From Sedimentisphaerales bacterium (GTDB lineage Bacteria > Planctomycetota > Phycisphaerae > Sedimentisphaerales > Anaerobacaceae): a DNA stretch of 64,000 bases. The stretch covers positions 192,001 to 256,000 of the forward strand of contig OY970194.1 in assembly GCA_963708075.1 (NCBI GenBank), in the 5' to 3' direction. The stretch's first letter is position 1, and each line of letters starts with the position of its first letter. The position numbers were made by a program, and so were the translations under genes. Shown in pieces: positions 16,283 through 61,164 of the stretch. The notes below the pieces were generated by a model that did not search any database, had not been told where the DNA came from, and saw only the letters and a list, made by a program, of their open reading frames with translations.

Positions 16283-16473
16283 GGGTGTGGTCGGAATACG
16301 GTGGCAATCGGCGAGCCTCTTCGTAGGTCGTGCGTCCCCGCACGACCAGTCCGGGCCCTTGCAACGGACTGGATACCGTACAAGGCCACAGCCGAAAGAG
16401 GACGAGCGAGGACGCTCGTCTTACGCGGAGCCCCGAATCCGCCACCGAATGGCGGCCGCATCCCCCCTGTGGG

Positions 16474-16862
16474 TGTGGTCGGAATTCGGTGGCGGCGTGT
16501 AGCCGCCGTGTGCGGACTGCGCCTCTTTCGTCCCTTACGGGACTGGCTTTTGTCCTCGGCCCCGGTTCCCCAGCGATAAATCGCTGGGCTATTCTCTATC
16601 GCCCTTCGGGCTTGAACTGCGCCCGGACGGGTTGATCATTATCCCGCAGGCGTTGCGGCTATTGGCTATCGCCCTGCGGGCTTGGACTTCGCTCCAGTCC
16701 TCTTGCGTCGGCCCGTCCGCCCCGCGGGGGCGATCGACACTAGCCCACCGTTTCAACGGTGGGTACGATAGTCAATCCTATCTCAAAGCCCCGTAGGGGC
16801 GAAAGAAGACTGGGCTGCGCTCTTGTGTCGGGTGCAAACCGAATCCGCCACCGAAGGCCGAC
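16474..16862. repeat. Composite REP/BIME-like palindrome element (family A)
   Basis: Hairpins GTCCCTTACGGGAC, CCCAGCGATAAATCGCTGGG, CCCACCGTTTCAACGGTGGG and GCCCCGTAGGGGC in the same order as at 23556-23828 and, inverted, 28790-29105. Confidence 0.85.
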
Positions 16863-16906
16863 CGCAGTCGCCCATGACGGCCGGTTTCCTCGCATCGCGA
16901 GTGTGA

Positions 16907-18508: not shown

Positions 18509-19783
18509 TCAATCCCGATTGTTGTTTTTGTGCGGTATGATGAAGTGCTCCGGCACGGGGAACTGCGAGCACAGCAGAAGCACTTCTTTGCCAATTTCCT
18601 CGATCATCGGCTCGTTGTCGATATTCTCGGCCACCCTGTGGATGAACGTGGCGACCTGCCGGGCTTCCGCCTCCTTGAAGCCGCGGGTGGTGATCGCCGG
18701 CGTCCCGACGCGCAGGCCGCTCGGATTGAACGGCGGGGCCGGATCACCGGGGATCGTGTTGTAATTCGAGACGATCCGCGCCCGGTCGAGAGCCTTGGCC
18801 AGCTTCTTGCCGGGAATACCCTTGTTCCTCAGGTCGATCAGGATCAGATGATTATCGGTCCCACCCGAAACGAGATTGAAGCCATACTCAAGAAGCTTTT
18901 CCGCCAGCGCCTTGGCATTCTTGACGATCTGTTTGGCGTAGGCGACAAACTCCGGCGTGTCGGCCTCCGCCAAAGCTACGGCGACCGCCGTCAGCGTGTG
19001 CATGTGCGGGCCGCCTTGAAGACCCGGGAAAACCGCACGATCCACCTTGTCGGCATGTTCCGCCTTGCACAGCAGCATGCCTCCGCGCGGACCGCGCAGC
19101 GTCTTGTGCGTGGTCGTGGATACGATGTCGGCGTACGGCACGGGGCTTTGGTGGATGCCCGCGACCACGAGGCCGGCGATATGTGCGATATCGCTGACAT
19201 GATATGCCCCGATTTCACGGGCGATCTCGCCAAAGGTCTTGAAATCGATGGCTCTCGGATAGGCGGTCGCCCCGGAGATAATGATCCTGGGACGGTGCTT
19301 TTTCGCCAGATCGCGAATGAGGTCGTAGTCGAGCCTGCCCGTTTCCGTGTTGAGGGTATAGGATACGGAGTTATAGAACTTGCTGGTCAGCGAGACTTTC
19401 CAGCCGTGGGTAAGGTGTCCGCCGTGTACGAGCGACATTCCCATGATCATGTCGTGCGGCTCGATGAGAGCGGAATACGCAGCCATGTTCGCTACCGACC
19501 CCGAGTACGGCTGCACATTCGCGTGATCGGCCTTGAAGAGCTTCTTGGCCCGCTCCTGTGCCACCTTCTCGATCAGGTCGGTAACCTGCTGTCCTTCGTA
19601 GTATCGTCTGCCGGGGTATCCCTCGGCGTATTTGTTTGTCAGACAGCTTGACGAAGCCATCATGACGGCCCGTGACACGTAGTTCTCCGACGGGATCAGG
19701 CGGATCGAACCGCTCTGCCGGGTCTCTTCCTGTCGGATGAGCTCGTAGATCTGCGGATCATACTGCTCGAGAGCTGTCCTCAT
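18509..19783 (-). CDS. glyA: Serine hydroxymethyltransferase
   Basis: LIPSENY, NKYAEGYPG.RYY, GGHLTHG, TTTHKTLRGPRGG, SGGTDNHL. Confidence 0.97.
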   Translation of the reverse strand: MRTALEQYDPQIYELIRQEETRQSGSIRLIPSENYVSRAVMMASSSCLTNKYAEGYPGRRYYEGQQVTDLIEKVAQERAKKLFKADHANVQPYSGSVANMAAYSALIEPHDMIMGMSLVHGGHLTHGWKVSLTSKFYNSVSYTLNTETGRLDYDLIRDLAKKHRPRIIISGATAYPRAIDFKTFGEIAREIGAYHVSDIAHIAGLVVAGIHQSPVPYADIVSTTTHKTLRGPRGGMLLCKAEHADKVDRAVFPGLQGGPHMHTLTAVAVALAEADTPEFVAYAKQIVKNAKALAEKLLEYGFNLVSGGTDNHLILIDLRNKGIPGKKLAKALDRARIVSNYNTIPGDPAPPFNPSGLRVGTPAITTRGFKEAEARQVATFIHRVAENIDNEPMIEEIGKEVLLLCSQFPVPEHFIIPHKNNNRD

Positions 19784-19947
19784 GGTACTTCTCCACACGG
19801 TAACGGCACATCCCTGCCGGCGGCCATGGCGATTGAAGTCAAATAACAATAGCGGCTCTTATAGCAGAACCGGCCTTCCTCCACAAGCTTTTATTCAGTG
19901 GAGTTCTGCCAAGGTGTGCGGCCGGTATTCGGCGGCAGAACCACGGG

Positions 19948-20652
19948 ATTGGCTTTGTTTCACACGAGCCACCGCCCCCTCCGCTGGCTTTGTTTCACAC
20001 AAGACCCCTTCCTGGATTTGGCTTTGTTTCGCACGACCGCTGAATAGCACGTAACGCCTTTCCTGCAAAGGACTTCCACCACACCCCGCCTCCGCAAGAT
20101 TGGCTTTGTTTCACACAGTAGGGCGGGCGTCCCCGCTCGCCCCGCCCGGCAGGGACAAATTGGCTTTGTTTCGCGCGATACATCCTCCGCTCCGTCGGGT
20201 GTGCCGTGCACACCACCTGTCCGGCAGGGCGAATTGGCTTTGTTTCACAGCCTCGCCCATCCGCTGCTGGCCTTTCAATCCGCAATCCGCAATCCAGGGC
20301 CTCCAGCCCTGCCAATTGGCTTTGTTCCACAGAATGGGTGCTGTCGACCGTTGCAGGCATCGATCCTTCAATCCGCATTTCGCAATCCCAGGGCCCCCGG
20401 CCCACAATTGGCTTTGTTTCGCGCACGGGCCCTCGCGTAGGATGGGCTGTGCCCACCGCCTGTCCGGCAGGCCAAATTGGGTTTGTCTTGCATGATAGCC
20501 TCTGTAGTCCTTTGAGTGAGGCAAATTGGCTTTGTTTCGCGCCGGGTTAGCCACCATGTGGCCCAACCGCCCTCGGCTGGGATCAACCCGAGGCCGGGGG
20601 ACTACCTGACACTTCAAACTTGACACTCCTTTCGATTTGGCTTTGTTTCACA
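19948..20652 (-). repeat. Repeat-spacer array 1: 11 copies of GYGAAACAAAGCCAAT (ATTGGCTTTGTTTCRC on +)
   Basis: Copies at about 19948, 19984, 20017, 20099, 20159, 20233, 20315, 20407, 20476 (degenerate), 20525 and 20636, with variable spacers. Confidence 0.92.
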
Positions 20653-21208
20653 GATTCGTTCACCCGCTCCCGGCCTTTCAATCCGCAATCCCCAGATCCT
20701 GCCACATGGCCATACGCTCCGACTTACCTGATCTGGCAGTCATTACCCTGTTTTTCCACTATCACACATACGTTGCAAATTCTGTGCCAGGTGAACACCC
20801 CCGAATCCGGCGTCTCATCCCGGTTGTCGCCCGGGACAGGCAGCCCCATATGGCAGAGCCACTGAAACGCAGATTCCGATTTTGTCATTCCTGCGAAAGC
20901 AGGAATCCAACCTTAGCCGCAGAGGACTCCAGCCGTCTACTGTCAGCCGCCAACTGAGAACTGACAACTGCTCTTTCATCCGCAGATTTCACGGATTTCC
21001 CAGCCCGGCCTTCGGCCGGAACCAATGGCGTTTAACGCTTTGCGGGTACCGGCGGGGAGATGATGGAACCAGGCGGTCAGCCGGGGCTTTCTCCACCTTC
21101 CCCGCCGGTACCTTGAACGCGATAAACGCACGCTTGGCTTCTGCCGTAACACTCGCCTCGGCAATAACTTATGGAGAAGCTGCACAACGATCTGGAAAAG
21201 ACTTTCAC

Positions 21209-21351
21209 CGGCAACACCAAAATCCAAGGCCTGACCCCTTTTCCTCTCCATGAAGTGTGCTGTCCCCGGAATTCCACAATGGCCCGCACCCTAAAAAGTA
21301 CCGTACCCGTTTGATTCCCCTCGGCAACACCAAAATCCAAAGCCTGACCCC
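21209..21351 (+). repeat. 30-bp direct repeat CGGCAACACCAAAATCCAARGCCTGACCCC (21209-21238, 21322-21351)
   Basis: One mismatch between copies; related AATCCAAAGCTTGACCCC at ~41768. Confidence 0.85.
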
Positions 21352-21423
21352 GTTTCTCCCTTTTCTCCCGTCAGATTTGACGTATTGGTCGCCGCGTCAT
21401 GGCCGGGCTCGCTGAGAGGGGCT

Positions 21424-21849
21424 CTATGGGTATTCGCTCTGTACCTCCCTCAATATAGAGTCCAGTTCCCCCGCTGGGAATCCGCTCAGACAGTTGCACC
21501 TACCACAGACGAAAGGCAATGTCCCACCGGGAATGGTGGCCATTCCGACCTCGCAAGAAGGGCAATACACGGAGCGTTCATAACCTCCCGAGGGTTTCCG
21601 CTTGAACTTGACGCCTCGGTATTCGACGAACTGGCGGCTCGGCATCTTTTCCTTGAGCATAGATATCTCTTCTCTCGCATTCGCAAGTTCTATCTGAAGA
21701 TCAGCCTTCTCCTTTTCGGCTTTCGCGAGCTCATCTTTCACGAGGCCCAGACGCTCTCTGAGGACAGCGCTTGATCCATGCTCGTTGATCGCTTTTTCGA
21801 GTAGCGACAAAGGATTTAGATTCACGATTGACACCTCAACGTTATTCAA
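21424..21849 (-). CDS. Hypothetical protein, coiled-coil plus CxxC...CxxC zinc ribbon
   Basis: 141-aa ORF in a lower-GC segment; YCPSC and CGRC motifs; start uncertain. Confidence 0.65.
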   Translation of the reverse strand: MNNVEVSIVNLNPLSLLEKAINEHGSSAVLRERLGLVKDELAKAEKEKADLQIELANAREEISMLKEKMPSRQFVEYRGVKFKRKPSGGYERSVYCPSCEVGMATIPGGTLPFVCGRCNCLSGFPAGELDSILREVQSEYP

Positions 21850-21935
21850 CCAAGATCATCAGTTGCATCCATTTATTATTGAACGTTCCCTCCACGTCTT
21901 GGCCACTATGGTCTGTCCTTGGCCCTCACGAAAGC

Positions 21936-22607
21936 CTACTTCACAATACTGACTATGACCGCAATAACCGACACTAGAAAGCTAAGCAGCGAAATCGTGA
22001 GTTCGGGAGTCCACTCAATAGGTTTCCGATCACGAAAGAATATCCTGACAAACGGGAACCACTTTTGCCGATATACCTGGATGCCGATCACAGCGAAGGG
22101 CAGGCAAGCTCCGCTCATCAGACCGCAGACCAGCCAATCCTCCCGGCTGAGCGCGAAACCGCCTAATAGGCCAAACAATAACGCCAGCATACCCAGTGCG
22201 ACAGGCATGATCTGCGGCTTCAGCCACCCGTACCATGGTCGTCGAGTGTCAAAGAAGGTGCGTAGCTGAGCGAGTTTGCCATGGTACCAAGTTGCATCCA
22301 TGGAGTGAATCTGGCAGTCTATATAACTGTGATAGCAGGTGAGATGAAGACCCGCCACGATCTCCTTACCGCTCCAATACTGGACTTCCGCACTAAACTT
22401 GTCTGTGTATGGTGGCAGACCACCTCCCAAAAGATCCGTGAGGGAGTCCGCCTTTTTCCTGGTGGAGCCGAGGGTAAACGAGTACTCTGAGTCCACCTTG
22501 GTAAACGTGCCGCCCTCGGACAACAGGGCAGCCAGAGCGAGCAGGTCGGCATTGTACAACACGGCTGGTCCATACCAGACAATCTCACGCAATTCGGTCC
22601 TTACCAT
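21936..22607 (-). CDS. Hypothetical membrane protein (soluble N-terminal domain plus 3 TM)
   Basis: 223-aa ORF with three C-terminal hydrophobic segments in a lower-GC segment. Confidence 0.65.
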   Translation of the reverse strand: MVRTELREIVWYGPAVLYNADLLALAALLSEGGTFTKVDSEYSFTLGSTRKKADSLTDLLGGGLPPYTDKFSAEVQYWSGKEIVAGLHLTCYHSYIDCQIHSMDATWYHGKLAQLRTFFDTRRPWYGWLKPQIMPVALGMLALLFGLLGGFALSREDWLVCGLMSGACLPFAVIGIQVYRQKWFPFVRIFFRDRKPIEWTPELTISLLSFLVSVIAVIVSIVK

Positions 22608-23297
22608 AGGTCGTTACTCACCCATATATTCGGAGACTAAGGTGCCAGGTACATCGTTCGAACTCACTCCTTGGTCTCCAAAGCTGTCACGCTCGACCTT
22701 GACAAAGGCATTGTAGGCGAGACTTGCGCATGTGGCAAGGAAAAAGGCAATCAAGAAGATGGGGCAATAGATTGCAAGACCCGAGGGTCATCCATATAGG
22801 GTTCTTGGCAAGTAAAAAAACACTCTCTTTGAACCGAAAAATCTACCCCTATGAAACATCCGTATTTCGGTCTGCTTGTGTCTGCTGTTGTGCAGCGTGA
22901 CACTAACCTATCGAAACGTCCAGGCTCCATCGCCCTTTTTCGCTCCTGCGAAGTTCGTTGGAGCAACGTGTCGAGTCCGCCGGCCGAAACAGAGGTGGGG
23001 GTCAACAGAGGTGGGGGTCAGACCTACGCATTTCACATTCTGGGAACTCGGGGACATGTGTGAGCAAGCCGTTGTCAAGACGGTCGCGGGATTTTTTCGC
23101 GGAAGTCCCAAACATCTATTCGGCGTCACGCGGTTATGGCCTCGCAAGACCAGACCATGGCTGGGCCGTGTTTCCCTTCTCAGGCCGTCTCCAGGAGATA
23201 CTTGCGGGGCGTGCCCGGCCCTTGCCGCGTGATGTGACCTAGGGCAATCGCCTGTGCGTCATCGGCTTGGTGAGGGGAGTTCGGAGTAGGGCTGTTT

Positions 23298-23452
23298 GGA
23301 GTTCCGCCTTCAGGCGGGTCAGACAGTCCGGCCTTCCTCTTCCCTCCCACGGTTGCAGATGTGGAGCCGGCTGCGCCGGAAGACTCCCCAAACCGCCTAA
23401 AGGCGGAACTCCGAACGGAAAGACTCTCTGGCCCGCGTAAACGCGGTACTCC
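23298..23452. repeat. REP-like inverted pair GGAGTTCCGCCTTCAGGCGG / CCGCCTAAAGGCGGAACTCC
   Basis: Short palindromes in inverted arrangement, plus the variant CCGCGTAAACGCGGTACTCC. Confidence 0.7.
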
Positions 23453-23555
23453 AAACGCGAAGTCCATGCTCACATGCGATTGCTCTGGATCCCCACCCCG
23501 GGGATCGTCCGGCACATTTCAAAGGAGGAAGCAAACGCGATGTGTTGGCGGCTCC

Positions 23556-23828
23556 TCTTTCGTCCCTCACGGGACTGGTTTTATCCTTTGGCCCCGACTA
23601 CCCAGCGATAAATCGCTGGGCTATTGTCTTGCGCCCTACGGGCTTGGGTGGCCTGCCCCGTTCTCTTGCGTCGGCTCCATCCGCCCCGCAGGGGCGAGCG
23701 GCAATAGCCCACCGTTTCAACGGTGGGTGTCGATAGCCCATCATCTCCCAAAGCCCCGTAGGGGCGGCAGAAGACCACCAACGCGATGCATCCCTCTGTC
23801 GCGTGTGGTCGGAATCCGCCACCGAAAG
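23556..23828. repeat. Composite REP element family A, copy 2
   Basis: Same hairpin series as 16474-16862. Confidence 0.85.
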
Positions 23829-23937
23829 CCGGGCGCACCCGCCATTTTGCAGAACTCCACTTATTCATTGACAAAATCTGGTCGAAGATTAGGATAGAGA
23901 AGTGATACATCATACGAGTAGATAACGACTTAACGCT

Positions 23938-28769: not shown

Positions 28770-28789
28770 GGCCAAGGGGTGCGGCCGAC

Positions 28790-29105
28790 ATTCGGTGGCG
28801 GGTTCCGATTCCACCGGACCCAAGAGCGCACCCTGGTCTTCTGTCGCCCCTGCGGGGCTTTGACATAGGATTGGCTATCGGCACCCACCGTTGAAACGGT
28901 GGGCTAGTGCCGATCGCCCCTGTGGGGCGGATGGGCTGACGCAGGAGGACTGGGGCGCAGTCGAAGCCCGCAGGGCGACAGAGAATAGCCCAGCGATTCA
29001 TCGCTGGGGAACCGGGGCCAAGGATAAAAACCAGTCCCGTAAGGGACGAAAGAGGGGCGATCCGCACACGGTGGCTACACGCCGCCACCGTATTCCGACC
29101 ACATC
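28790..29105. repeat. Composite REP element family A, copy 3 (inverted)
   Basis: CCCACCGTTGAAACGGTGGG, CCCAGCGATTCATCGCTGGG, GTCCCGTAAGGGAC. Confidence 0.85.
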
Positions 29106-29298
29106 CGGGCCAAGATTCGCGGGCCCTCGGCAAAGGGCCATCTACGTGACTTCCATTGCTCGTCCCGCCGGACTCGTGTGCCAGGGACTCCCCCTTGAAT
29201 TCTATTGTAGTTCTATTTGAACATTTGTATGACTTCTGGTATAATGTGGGCTCTGTGGGAGGTCTGGGTAATGTTTGGTGACCCTGGAGGAGTATGAA

Positions 29299-32340: not shown

Positions 32341-32572
32341 CGGGTGGCAGCGGCAAGCGGAGCCGTTCATGGGCCTTCGGCGCACCCGAAGAGGATGAAA
32401 ATGGCATGCTCTTCGTAGGTCGTGCGTCCTCGCACGACCCTGGGCGAGCGGGGACGCTCGCCCTACGCGGAGATCTGTCCGGCGTATTTTCAGAGGAGTC
32501 TGCGGAGCTTGCCTGTGGTGTTCCGCAGTATATGTAAGCCATCGGCAAGCTGCGCTTGCCGCTGCCACCCGT
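32341..32572. repeat. REP-like inverted pair GGGTGGCAGCGGCAAGC / GCTTGCCGCTGCCACCC with nested GTAG-type REPs
   Basis: Same pair at 37259-37347; related units at ~48809; inner CTTCGTAGGTCGTGCGTCC.CGCACGACC also at ~16319. Confidence 0.8.
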
Positions 32573-45953: not shown

Positions 45954-46175
45954 GGGCCACATTTGGTGGTGTCATTTCCTCCCGAAGAGAACGGGACTCG
46001 TACCATTCTCGATAGGGCGCCTGCGAACGGTTGTGAGAGATGAATGATCCACCACGACTTCCCGTCTGTTGAACATCGCACCACGGCTTCACAATCCATA
46101 CCATTATTAGAGCGAAAATCGCTCGGAAATGCAAAGGAAAACGGTTGTCGGTAGTCAGTAGCCGGTATTCGGCTG

Positions 46176-46580
46176 TAAAGCCTTGTCCGGCAGAAGTTTA
46201 TCAGCGTTGATCGGCGGTCATCCGCGGTTGAAGAGCAGTTGTCAGTTCCCAGTTGGCTGGTTGCTGGTTCTCGATTGTAAGTCCTTGGACTGAAAAGGCT
46301 TATGTCTCGCGCTGAGACGCAGAGCCCGCAGGGTTTGAAATGCACTTGTCGGTCTTCTCTTTCTCTGCGTCTCCGCGTCCCTGCGTGCAAATATGTTGTC
46401 GGTTGTCGTTCATAAAGCCTTGTTCGGCAGGAGTTTATCAGCGTTTATCGGCGTTCATCAGCGGTTGAAGAGCAGTTGTCAGTTCTCGGTTAACAGTTCC
46501 CAGTTGGCTGGTTGCTGGTTCTTGGTTGTAAGTCCTTGGACTGAAAAGGATTATGTGTCACGCAGAGACGCGGAGACGCT
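46176..46580 (+). repeat. Imperfect tandem duplication (~150-170-bp unit; starts ~46176 and ~46413)
   Basis: Both units carry TAAAGCCTTGT.CGGCAG, GAAGAGCAGTTGTCAGTTC, CAGTTGGCTGGTTGCTGGTTC and TAAGTCCTTGGACTGAAAAGG. Confidence 0.8.
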
Positions 46581-46752
46581 GAGAAAACCGGTCGAAATCT
46601 ATTCTGAACTCTGCGGGCTCTGCGTCTCTGCGTGAGAATCTGGTTTTTCACCCCGAGGCTGGGCCAGGTCAATCTTCGTAAGCCGATGTGTGGCAAGAGC
46701 TTATCTTCAGGTGTCGCAATGAAGAAAAGTCCCTGTGTTGTCGGGATTTTAC

Positions 46753-46781: not shown

Positions 46782-46902
46782 TGTGACACAACTGAATGGA
46801 GAACCACTCAGAGTGCGGAGTACGGAGTGCGGAGTACGGAATGCGGAATCAAGAGCGGGGCGAGTGGCGTGGTGTACCTCCAATGACAAACACACGTAGT
46901 TT

Positions 46903-47583
46903 GCGAAACAAAGCCAATTTCGGGGCGGGGGCCCGCGATTGCGGATTGCGGAATGCGGATTGAGGGCAGGGAGACCACTATGCGAAACAAAGCCAATTTC
47001 GGGCGGAGGGCCGTTGGAGTGCGGATTGCGGAATGCGGAATGCGGAATGAAGAGAGAATCGCGCGAAACAAAGCCAATTTGCCGGGAGAGGGCGGCAGGC
47101 GACAGGCCGGAGGAATGTGGGCGGGTGATTTTGCGAAACAAAGCCAATTTCGGGGGACGGGATCAGCGTGAAGTCCTTTACGGGAAAGGAGTTGCGTTTG
47201 ATTCGACGAGGATGTGAAACAAAGCCAATTTCGGGCCGGGGGCCATGGGATTGCGGATTTCGGATTGCGGAGTGCGGATTGAAGACAGGGCGAGTGCCGT
47301 GATGTGCCTCCGGGGACAGTTTGTGAAACAAAGCCAATTTCCAGCAAAGGGCCTGCGATTGGGGATTGCGGAATGCGGAATGAAGAGGCTCGTGCGAAAC
47401 AAAGCCAATTTGCCGGGCAGACAGCCGAGAGCCCTACGGGCAGTTTGCGAAACAAACCAATTGTGAGCGAGTTTCGAGTTTGAAGTGTGAGGTGTCAAGC
47501 GGGAGGGGCTGGATGTGAGGCATTCGACTTCAAACTTCAAACATAACACTTCACACCTCGACTTGGCGAAACAAAGCCAAATG
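46903..47583 (+). repeat. Repeat-spacer array 2: 9 copies of GYGAAACAAAGCCAATTT
   Basis: Copies at 46903, 46982, 47063, 47133, 47214, 47323, 47394, 47447 (1-nt deletion) and 47566; periods 53-119 bp. Confidence 0.93.
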
Positions 47584-47809
47584 TGGAGGAGATGGGAGGG
47601 ATAGGTAAAAGGGCGATGTGGGACGTGCGGCGGGGGGGCTTTGTGCTGGGGAGGGGTGTCGCATGGGAGGGAGGTGATCTTAGAAAAAGCTTTGCACGGA
47701 GACTGTGCGGAGTGCTTAATAGTAGGAAGTAGGACGGACAACACGGCCGGTTGCCGTACGCGTTTGTGAATTGCGGCTGAAAAGCGTTGCTGATACAGGG
47801 AGGATTTAC

Positions 47810-59665: not shown

Positions 59666-60109
59666 GATAAATAATCGCCAAATATCCAAATTTTGTTGCG
59701 TGCTAAACCTCTATCCCATCAAGACTAAGGAGAGCCGAAGAGAAAAATGTCGCGGCGTGACCTGGGGTGGCAGCCCGAGCCCGCAGCGCGACAGAGAATA
59801 GCCCAGCGATTGATCGCTGGGAAACCGGACCCGGGATGGAACCAGTCCCGTAAGGGACGAAAGAGGTGGTTCTGTCCACCGAACGAGTCGCCGCGGGCCA
59901 AGCCAATAGTATGGCATCGGGAAGACTGGTTGTCCGGTGACAGATGAGATAGGGAATTGACTATGGTGTCTCGCGATTGGCCCGATTGTGATTGCCAAAA
60001 GAATGTGAAATATGTAGGTGTGACCCCCTATCCGCCCGTGATGGAACCAGTCCCGTAAGGGACAAAAGAGGGCCGATATCCGCGTCTTCTCGTTTTTCGC
60101 TAATAGGCT

Positions 60110-60697
60110 CTACGATTTGGATCTGGCGAAGCTCAACAGTAGGCCGAACTCGCCATCATCTGCTTCGTGCAAAGCATCAAAGTATTTCTTCCTTAGCTCA
60201 CCAACCTGCTCCAGAGGACCTCCTCCCCACGAAAACGCTGGCTTGCCCAGGACCCTCTGCATCAGAACATCAGCCATCAGCCTGGCGTGACGTCCGTTGC
60301 CGTTAGGAAATGGATGAATCCAGACAAGCCTGTGGTGAAACCGCACGCCGATCTCGTCCTGAGGAAATATGGAGTGCTCAATCCAGTACCTCGCATCCGC
60401 ACACAGCTTCGGCACTTCATCCTGAATCTGCCAGACCTTGACGCCGAGGTTCTTCTCGGTCGTCCTGTACTGCCCCGCCCACGTCCACGTCTCGTCAAAC
60501 ATCTTCCTGTGCAACAGGCGCACAGATGGTTCGCTCAAGACGTCCCAAAGCCTCACTCGATTCAGCCACCGGTGCGCTCTGTCTATGTTCAGAGCTTCCC
60601 ATGTGTCCAGTTCACCACGCGTCACAATGTGGCCTGGGATCAGGCCTTGAAGCTCGTCCTCAGAAAGAGGAGTAGCTCCCTCAGGATACTGGATCAT
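60110..60697 (-). CDS. Mobile mystery protein B (Fic family)
   Basis: GATPL..DEL.GL, W.WAG.YR, IHPFPNGNGRHARL. Confidence 0.9.
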   Translation of the reverse strand: MIQYPEGATPLSEDELQGLIPGHIVTRGELDTWEALNIDRAHRWLNRVRLWDVLSEPSVRLLHRKMFDETWTWAGQYRTTEKNLGVKVWQIQDEVPKLCADARYWIEHSIFPQDEIGVRFHHRLVWIHPFPNGNGRHARLMADVLMQRVLGKPAFSWGGGPLEQVGELRKKYFDALHEADDGEFGLLLSFARSKS

Positions 60698-61164
60698 TCG
60701 TCCTCCCACAATGGGACGCTGGTATCGTTCAGGATGGTGTCAACCATTCCGTCTATTAGCTCAGCCTTATCTTGGTCATTTAGGCCCTGTCCTTCGAGAG
60801 TCATCGTGAGCGACGTTTGTTTGAGGCGTGCTTCAGCGATCTTCTTCGCCTGATCCCTGACAGTTTCTTCAAGGCTGGTCTTCGGAACAATCCAGTATAC
60901 GAATGAACAGTCCATTGCCTTTGCCACGTCGCTCATGGTCTTCAGCGTCAGGTTTCCCAAGAGTTCATCCTTCTCAATCCATGCAACTCGCTGCCTGGAC
61001 ACGCCAAGGCGCTTGCCAAGTTGTGCGCCACTCATCCGTAGCGCCTGGCGCACAGACCGTATCCAGCCCCCGCGCGGGCGAGGTGATTTACGCATGGCCT
61101 CCTGGGCCAGCCTCAATTGCTTGGTCAATTGGCTTCTCATGAGCTTATTCGTCTGCGCATCCAT
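60694..61164 (-). CDS. Mobile mystery protein A (XRE-family HTH)
   Basis: PRGGWIRSVRQAL.MS..QL..RLGVS, TMTLEGQ, LW; ATGA coupling to gene B. Confidence 0.9.
   Translation of the reverse strand: MDAQTNKLMRSQLTKQLRLAQEAMRKSPRPRGGWIRSVRQALRMSGAQLGKRLGVSRQRVAWIEKDELLGNLTLKTMSDVAKAMDCSFVYWIVPKTSLEETVRDQAKKIAEARLKQTSLTMTLEGQGLNDQDKAELIDGMVDTILNDTSVPLWEDE

Follow-up and report, generated by a model that had tools for sequence, protein, structure and literature searches.

One-way REP hairpins at a preferred distance from the motif in a family of scattered repeat arrays of a Sedimentisphaerales bacterium

Introduction

In a 64,000-nt stretch of the genome of a Sedimentisphaerales bacterium, referred to here as the window, a short motif recurs upstream of glyA between spacers that contain pieces of other repeats of the same genome. 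The locus raises the question of how these repeats came to lie between the motif copies, and whether they serve a purpose there. An earlier note on this DNA had proposed that the array captures or catalogues endogenous REP and short tandem repeat elements, either as a landing pad for their spread or as guide-like RNAs directed at them. Here, we describe the array, its relatives in the host genome (G000) and in congeners, and the arrangement of the REPs within them, and we weigh the mechanisms that could have produced this arrangement.

Results

Layout of the array and its spacers

All 11 motif copies that had been counted near glyA were recovered on the minus strand. The features of the array, in window coordinates, are:

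19947..20652, minus strand: array of 11 copies of an 18-nt motif with the 12-nt core AAACAAAGCCAA, in units of 34-111 nt
20635, 20524, 20475, 20406, 20314, 20232, 20158, 20098, 20016, 19982, 19947, minus strand: left coordinates of the motif copies
20775..20789, minus strand: exact sigma54-type −24/−12 consensus, a predicted promoter, 137 nt before the first motif
20653..20774, minus strand: leader with an RBS-like site and a mini-ORF of 9-11 codons
20613..20619, plus strand: one exact copy of a second heptamer amid degenerate units
20558..20605, strand not applicable: two-hairpin REP composite, tags outward, spacer 0
20437..20457, plus strand (the tag-bearing, transposase-active type of strand): GTAG-tagged REP singlet, 13 nt to the next motif
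20276..20295, plus strand: tandem run of a first heptamer, single arm, 2.9 copies
20194..20214, plus strand: GTCG-tagged REP singlet with the polarity of the REP at 20437, 18 nt to the next motif
20118..20142, plus strand: GTAG-tagged REP singlet, same polarity, 2 nt to the next motif, with ~70 family copies outside arrays
~20050..20078, strand not applicable: copy of a dispersed dyad site (YAA-N19-TTR)
32442..32466, minus strand: REP copy outside the array, identical to 20118-20142 at 24/25 nt

The correspondence between the last REP singlet and its outside copy, noted earlier, holds as a reverse complement, and the two other hairpins singled out before carry their tags. At the 20437 REP, the sense strand of the array is the inactive complement. 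The two-hairpin composite, which like the dyad site had gone unmentioned before, is a module shared with four other arrays and has ~20 copies outside arrays. The first heptamer run is present as claimed, and degenerate runs of it also lie near 20369-20389 and within the leader; the claim of a second run is weaker than stated, with the one exact copy standing and the remainder degenerate. One and the same 5′ stub precedes three different REP families, in spacers 2, 5, and 6.

The exact sigma54 pattern occurs in 0.1% of random intergenic windows, and the leader behind it is found again at the array at G000:1388803. Stop codons interrupt all three frames of the array, and an Rfam search returned no match within 19947-20652. 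A contig from sequencing run X1, which may be the source sample, spans 20103-20920 with one substitution and three gaps; this near-identity argues against a long-read assembly artifact, with the proviso that X1 is possibly the same sample.

A transposon-like insertion carries the array

The array lies inside an insertion, the parts and surroundings of which are:

19898..23860, strand not applicable: insertion of 3,963 bp with 12-bp perfect inverted ends
19891..19897: flanking direct repeat of 7 bp, a likely target duplication that congeners have only once at their empty site
23861..23867: second copy of this direct repeat (7 bp), on the far side of the insertion
21424..21849, minus strand: cargo ORF of 141 aa, no Pfam or NCBIfam family
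21936..22607, minus strand: cargo ORF of 223 aa, no Pfam or NCBIfam family, two homologues at 59-64% identity
23551..23843: part of a MITE, ~290 nt, with Rfam Acido-Lenti-1 matches
18509..19783, minus strand: glyA (serine hydroxymethyltransferase), its promoter region common to array-free congeners
16420-16870, 23551-23843, 28777-29106, 59759-59866: MITE copies in the window

Besides the array and its leader, the insertion contains the two orphan ORFs, clusters of REPs, and the truncated MITE. Array and insertion are both absent from 12 of 12 congeners, in which one short promoter region serves both glyA and a divergent gene; the divergent gene has ~700 codons where the contig is long enough, and in G000 it is found 4 kb away. 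Inverted ends, a target duplication, and empty sites are the marks of a MITE or non-autonomous transposon, and from its sequence the carrier of the array looks like a non-autonomous transposon. Its outer ends were found nowhere else in G000, none of 78 metagenome matches showed the same context, and no cognate transposase was found for it.

A MITE-type end lies within 120 nt of the last motif at a clear score in 6 of the 38 arrays described below, and at a weaker score in one more. The MITEs are 287, 357, or 427 bp long, with terminal repeats that start with GGG and target duplications of 8-9 bp, and ~27 paired copies are present in G000. No cognate transposase was found for this GGG-ended family either; an IS630-like split transposase, read from ORFs inside one MITE copy (L049, G000:5257000-5258750, a 1.5-kb MITE-bounded element), was considered and rejected as the cognate enzyme. 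All seven Acido-Lenti-1 matches in the window fall within MITE repeats, and this 'sRNA' may be an internal hairpin of a mobile element. By eye, many single MITE ends are located ~25-35 nt from a −35-like hexamer on the reverse strand, which suggests targeting of promoter-upstream DNA. Elsewhere in the window, 60110-60709 encodes a mobile mystery protein B (TIGR02613, above cut-off).

The array belongs to a scattered family

A weight-matrix scan of the 7.5-Mb G000 yielded 60 motif clusters, 38 of which have 3-13 copies, each with all copies on one strand. Across these arrays, spacers range from 14 to ~250 nt and units from 33 to 270 nt. The sense strand is G-rich in 37/38 (skew +0.21), and the gene downstream is co-oriented in 30/38. 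By strict patterns, a promoter-like leader precedes 27 of the 38 arrays on the sense strand: 15 ECF-like, 10 sigma70-like, and 2 sigma54, against backgrounds of 1.35, 0.85, and 0.1%, respectively (about 2% overall), the ECF-like and sigma70-like patterns having been derived from the same leaders on which they were scored. The class of 15 is one that we take to be of ECF type. The arrays land upstream of housekeeping promoters, which again suggests that promoter-upstream DNA is targeted.

The exact 16-mer of the motif is present in 15 of 41 relatives, among them 13 of 23 congeners, in very uneven numbers. The window holds a second member of the family:

46902..47584, plus strand: sister array with eight strong motif copies and a sigma70-type leader, upstream of an M48 peptidase gene

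The same peptidase locus in the congener G007 also has eight motif copies, with spacers unrelated to those in G000; spacers are fully replaced while the motif persists. Of 34 array loci in four congeners for which the downstream gene could be placed in G000, only 2 have an array there, one of them being the M48 peptidase locus, and array positions are mostly lineage-specific.

Other observations concern the surroundings of individual arrays. Upstream of the leader of the sister array, 46158-46640 is densely filled with 10-mer and heptamer tandem repeats and duplicated blocks of 85-97 nt. A truncated REP-associated transposase gene (L008:1471-1929, G000:481667-482125), broken where a REP sits, lies just upstream of the ECF-class array at G000:482605. 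At L050:3045-3919 (G000:1391344-1392218), two genes that look small heat-shock-like in sequence are accompanied by a sigma54-like site, and this pair stands back to back with a broken helicase-like gene and a second sigma54-class array.

The motif is conserved as sequence and not as base pairing. No conserved motif hairpin was detected by covariation, pairing between spacer ends had no support (z +1.0 over 529 units), and the array RNA as a whole folded no better than shuffles (z −0.13); the A-rich core of the motif is predicted to be unpaired (0.73-0.83). A conserved RNA structure was rejected on these grounds, together with the lack of covariation in the dyad. Two further origins were considered. 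The motif as a target-duplicated mini-insertion was rejected, its two edges not covarying, and retro-copying of the arrays was judged unlikely, the one reverse transcriptase of the genome lying far from the arrays and the promoters upstream of the predicted start being common to the copies.

Neither the motif, the array, nor the linked protein family described below matches an Rfam or Pfam entry, and our literature searches found no paper on them. The main text of bioRxiv 10.64898/2026.10.21.760802 mentions no Planctomycetes, Phycisphaerae, or Acidobacteria, and its database could include the array family; the heptamer repeats treated in the relevant part of PMC4679880 are from other bacteria and not in arrays of this type. 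The family appears to be undescribed so far.

Spacers are mosaics of repeats, many shared among arrays

We counted spacers with at least five matches of at least 36 bits outside all arrays. This applied to 37.3% of 244 spacers, to 15.2% of 1,220 intergenic pieces matched for length and GC content, and to 0% of 732 shuffles, so the enrichment of repeat pieces over matched intergenic DNA that the earlier note had asked about is present. The matching parts comprise a dozen families, including GTAG- and GTGG-tagged REPs and the two heptamer repeats; one very abundant REP among them has ~560 matches. The modules have the properties of REPs, namely a short hairpin, an unpaired terminal tag, and many dispersed extragenic copies. 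G000 has 13 matches to Y1 transposases, two of the three tested scoring above the cut-off of the REP-associated transposase model NF047646, and both of these genes are flanked by one of the REP families; for the remaining families, no cognate gene was assigned.

That the spacers contain pieces of many endogenous repeat families thus stands; that the array is a current catalogue of them is not supported. Over 60% of the spacers have no repeated target. No spacer longer than 20 nt reaches 70% of its full-length score anywhere outside arrays, and only 17 pieces of 20 nt or less do. Spacers are closer to a spacer of another array in 143 of 244 cases and to outside DNA in 92, and one REP family, absent from G000, was found only inside the arrays of three congeners (13/13 matches). 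The spacers are mosaics of 5′ and 3′ halves, with half-spacers common to several arrays, 3′ junctions common within REP families, and spacer families that recur among congeners. A search of the 19947-20652 spacers against virus and plasmid databases, as the earlier note had advised, gave no phage or plasmid match.

The dyad is a second recurrent spacer element. Across genomes, 105 of the 134 units that measure 90-93 bp contain it, and although these units diverge in sequence, it sits at offsets of 35-36 and 30-31 nt; of the other units, 23 of 305 have it. The dyad thereby defines a unit that relatives conserve at 90-92 bp. G000 has ~130 intergenic matches to it versus 27 in a shuffled genome, strands being counted apart, and no compensatory pairing was found. 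In the window, dyad sites also occur at 46276, 46411, and 46527, and genome-wide dyads often precede array leaders; one is located ~65 nt from the cumulative GC-skew minimum (G000:5191587).

REPs in arrays share one polarity and a preferred offset

In the arrays of G000, REPs are mostly single arms, with 60 singlets versus 9 doublet arms, while outside arrays 441 singlets stand against 574 doublet arms; whole doublets remain in a few spacers. The earlier note had named random position and orientation as the outcome that would speak against it. Instead, with patterns for 11 families searched on both strands, array singlets without exception (60 of 60) have their tag 3′ on the sense strand (patterns b and c overlap, so that 3 matches are counted twice), and for 78 of 95 REPs a gap of 9-23 nt separates the tag end from the motif that follows, where random placement within each spacer predicts 31. 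The few doublet arms in arrays split 6:3. TnpA-REP binds and cuts single-stranded REP, not iREP, and acts only on the strand with the 5′ tag (PMC8266576); the sense strand of the arrays hence carries the inactive, iREP-type form.

Because the 11 families had been picked from spacers, we also scanned blindly for any GTAG followed by a hairpin. The counts were 22:3 in G000, the three being 5′ arms of one two-hairpin composite, 4:0 in the genomes G019 and G005, and 17:0 in the tails of genes from 80 loci elsewhere. As controls, the DNA upstream of these last genes gave 7:10, and that lying 250-1,500 nt ahead of the G000 arrays 9:3. For G007 and G013, with 279 spacers, the ratio was 24:1 by family patterns and 4:1 by the blind scan. 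Among 30 loci of other genomes centered on the REP at 20118, 27 are outside arrays, 2 are inside with the usual polarity, and 1 is inside and reversed. Copies within a family share junctions, so that the family is the independent unit; at this level, 11 of 11 families agree in G000 (p = 0.001), and so do four further families elsewhere. For the offset, 9 of 14 family medians fall within 9-23 nt (p about 0.01, for a range set after inspection of the data), while one family abuts the motif at 2 nt and two lie beyond 30 nt. The linker between REP and motif retains at most a few nucleotides of native outside flank. Other elements are also polar in the arrays: the heptamer arms at 24:0, the G-rich arm being on the sense strand in 24/24, and at 14:7, and the dyad at 20:3. 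REP polarity and offset are thus non-random across unrelated families and genomes.

Three simple causes of the polarity were rejected. Replication-strand bias does not account for it, since the leading strand carries 16 of 38 arrays and, outside arrays, 212 of 441 singlets. Nor does a general transcription bias of REPs, which outside arrays are found at 235:253 in co-oriented gaps and, as singlets within 150 nt after a stop codon, at 91:135. Stop-codon avoidance fails as the sole cause since 24 of 30 solo arrays, closed in all frames, are polar all the same; a stop codon inside the tag accounts for only one frame in three.

Some arrays are the tail of a protein

In G000, the products of nine genes begin with an NRRNAxKSTGP signature in their N-terminal part, and a motif cluster follows each of these genes at 567-744 nt; several of the genes share a leader with solo arrays. 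Eight sister arrays form the tail of this protein family. The reading frame is open through seven of the eight gene-linked arrays, where 0.6 would be expected, as compared with 6 of 30 solo arrays (1.9 expected; antisense 5/30), and units that shift the frame occur as compensating pairs. Of 80 loci elsewhere, 77 have the motif no more than 1 kb past the protein domain, and none has it in antisense. Across 120 proteins, the three frames of the motif have 230, 122, and 7 matches; being read in two frames, the motif is conserved at the nucleotide level.

The family comprises 38,612 clusters at 50% identity (E up to 0.001), with relatives in Phycisphaerae, Sedimentisphaerales, and other Planctomycetota records. 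No Pfam, NCBIfam, or PHROG family was assigned, and 53 members searched against Pfam gave just two single weak matches. The domain has 180 residues, and the model of the protein is all-helical (pLDDT 78). Fold searches gave generic helical matches, with best Foldseek E-values of 0.93 (PDB) and 0.15 (viral), and, as best VIA match, helical hairpins with Z 7.4 and an rmsd of 3.5 over 97 residues; no nuclease or effector fold was found. The clusters nearest to the domain in the protein atlas are unnamed. Two of the three nearest bear a viral label, which goes back to one or two members for which a phylum is recorded; this hints, weakly, that phages may be carriers of the family. In many linked proteins, the variable array tail gives way to a conserved C-terminal peptide that is basic and contains histidine (a pattern recovers it in 29 of 120; examples are L046, L047, L053-L055, L057, P0001, P0005, P0011, P0015, and P0023), and in G000 a MITE-type end comes after this peptide.

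Discussion

Comparison with known systems

CRISPR repeats are ~23-47 nt long with spacers of regular length, and their unique spacers match protospacers along the length. The arrays described here resemble them in having a short conserved repeat and variable spacers behind a leader, with spacers that derive from other DNA. They differ in that the repeat is 18 nt and unstructured and in that the spacers, 14-250 nt in length, are mosaic and reused between arrays; there are 38 scattered loci, some of them translated, and no whole-spacer protospacers. The single-contig G000, rated 92.8% complete, has no match to cas1. With the repeat length, the irregular units, and the absence of protospacers, cas1, and phage or plasmid matches in these searches, we reject a CRISPR array.

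The spacer modules are ordinary tagged REP hairpins as in REP, REPIN, and BIME systems (PMC3733652, PMC6006769); outside arrays they are mostly doublets with tags outward, and G000 encodes REP-associated transposases (TnpA-REP, RAYT). BIMEs and REPINs are described as inverted pairs of one family (PMC2817692). The arrays, in contrast, hold single arms of at least 11 families, in one orientation, between unrelated, non-palindromic motifs and behind a promoter-like leader, and with 60 singlets to 9 doublet arms they are not BIMEs or REPINs.

The 'cuckoo' RNA locus CcaF1-CcsR1-4 of Rhodobacter sphaeroides likewise has a small-protein gene of an unnamed family, followed by tandem motif units, and an alternative-sigma promoter (PMC8034643). 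The CcsR motifs are anti-Shine-Dalgarno loops in conserved hairpins of a 3′ UTR (PMC8034643), whereas the motif here is A-rich and has no conserved hairpin, its units can be coding in frame, and its spacers carry REPs. The linked protein has no DUF1127 match, the array no Rfam match, and the surroundings of the motif no covariation, so that a cuckoo RNA/DUF1127 locus was dismissed.

Placement of the array within an insertion with inverted ends and a 7-bp direct repeat is shared with MITEs and cargo transposons, from which the family differs in that most arrays have no MITE-type end; the outer ends of the insertion were found nowhere else, and the search for a cognate transposase gave none. For palindromic repeats that become translated peptide segments, the palindromic elements within Rickettsia coding sequences are a precedent; here, the repeats collect in the repeat-anchored tail of one protein family and are not scattered over housekeeping genes. 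For an integron or attachment-site array, the sole hint is the fixed 90-92-bp dyad unit. A likeness to CsrB-like, protein-titrating RNAs is a predicted one, from the promoter-like leaders of 27/38 arrays and the unpaired core.

A proposed filtered, protein-binding array and its alternatives

We favor, with a probability of about 0.5, a likely promoter-driven array with many protein-binding sites; REPs would settle in its free filler, one of their orientations would be lost, and the filler would be reshuffled from array to array. The sigma54-type leader would drive transcription of the array. A protein would bind the many copies of the motif, most likely in the transcript, which we prefer to double-stranded DNA at about 55:45. 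The candidate binder is the NRRNAxKSTGP family, and the solo arrays would be derivatives that lack its gene and titrate the protein. REP transposases of the host would insert doublets into the spacers. A G-rich, untranslated transcript might form R-loops, which would leave the sense strand exposed to these enzymes; as they would cut only the GTAG-bearing strand, the 5′ arm, cleavable on the sense strand, would be lost. Selection on binding may keep ~10-20 nt beside each motif free of hairpins, and motif-to-motif recombination or gene conversion would shuffle half-units and copy the surviving arms between arrays. The REP content would then be a filtered by-product and not a guide library.

Several observations fit this model. 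Outside doublets have their tags outward in 280 of 286 cases, so that a doublet deprived of its 5′ arm is precisely what the singlets in arrays look like. A G-rich and mostly untranslated sense strand would favor R-loops. The excess of spacers closest to other arrays, the shared 3′ junctions, and the array-only REP family speak for copying between arrays. The opposite lean of singlets downstream of ordinary genes means that the purge must be specific to arrays.

Other observations count against it. The polarity holds in translated tails, where ribosomes should limit R-loops, and the heptamer arms and the dyad are polar too, which REP transposases do not explain. DNA upstream of the arrays leans the same way in the 9:3 control. 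In Pseudomonas, excision took out nearly the entire doublet, and that of singlets was not observed (PMC3116915). The family located 2 nt from the motif is at odds with a strict clear zone. Finally, a fixed 90-92-bp unit with a non-covarying dyad fits a site on double-stranded DNA better than one on RNA, and the folding result for the array RNA also counts against the model.

A possible alternative, to which we give distinctly less weight, is directed capture anchored at the motif: a motif-bound protein would supply an antisense nick or 3′ end, or recruit REP transposases, and REP strands would be joined ~10-20 nt away in one orientation. It would account for polarity and offset together, including the 9-23-nt spacing with its post hoc limits. 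HUH strand transfer joins a 3′-OH to the cut REP strand and so fixes polarity (PMC8266576), a single 5′ stub stands ahead of three REP families in the array near glyA, and polarity holds in translated and untranslated arrays alike. However, no enzyme gene is linked to the arrays, and the linked protein is all-helical without a family or fold match. Native REP flank is carried along for a few nucleotides at most, the common junctions within families leave few independent events, and the families at 2 nt and beyond 30 nt depart from the expected distance. The landing pad of the earlier note has a tentative place here, as a directed mechanism of this kind; nothing shows arrays spreading REPs outward.

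A further reading, which we regard as rather doubtful, is Cas-free recording. The motif-bound protein would steer REP transposases, or a strand-joining partner of its own, to write resident mobile repeats one-way, and what results would be a hypervariable protein tail or else an RNA complementary to the active strand of each REP family; the protein family concerned has ~38,600 clusters.

It is unlikely that the array is foremost a double-stranded DNA scaffold, in which direct-repeat motifs flank the dyad at fixed spacing, like the arm and core sites of a recombination complex, site-specific recombination shuffles cassette-like spacers, and polarity is inherited from the cutting and joining. 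The dyad at fixed offsets in units of 90-93 bp, without compensatory pairing, its intergenic excess over the shuffled genome, and the mosaic of 5′ and 3′ halves all speak for such a scaffold. Against it, rough gene calls place no recombinase gene beside the arrays, most arrays have sense-strand promoter-like leaders, and the scaffold does not itself explain the polarity shared by all REP families. The dyad presumably matches the IHF consensus only in part, which we also count against it.

The guide-like or antisense RNAs of the earlier note fared worse, and we consider them quite improbable. Cleavage of a transcript at each motif would yield small RNAs that are the complement of the transposase-active REP strand, and these RNAs would curb the spread of REPs. 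Every singlet on the sense strand is indeed the complement of the active strand, the leaders are promoter-like, and array-rich genomes are rich in REPs, with 14-70 copies of the tested family in four genomes against 2 in the array-poor G004. Yet the spacers vary from 14 to ~250 nt and mostly have no repeated target, for one REP family, three genomes offer no target other than the arrays, and eight arrays are protein-coding; moreover, cas1, a nuclease or other effector fold of the linked protein, and a conserved motif hairpin were all missing from our searches.

A founder effect, in which a few REP insertions arose by chance, multiplied as arrays were copied from one another, and agree in polarity by luck, would suit the common junctions, the non-independence of copies, and the recurrence of spacer families among congeners, but is nearly refuted by the agreement of all 11 families in G000, of the four further families, and of the blind scans, and we hold it to be very improbable.

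Implications

How REPs spread, and why lone REP arms exist, are given as unresolved in passages of PMC3116915 and PMC8266576. The arrays are a natural in-genome assay for these questions, since many unrelated REP families have come to share an orientation and a distance to a defined site, and this arrangement makes strand-specific loss versus directed insertion testable. They further connect a specific nucleotide motif with an unnamed protein family of very large size, and they show that one type of repeat array can encode a protein tail, with its frame preserved, at some loci and be non-coding elsewhere. Should the polarity be merely a by-product, as it would be under the filtered, protein-binding array that we favor, the arrays would still constitute an undescribed mobile family that lands upstream of housekeeping promoters.
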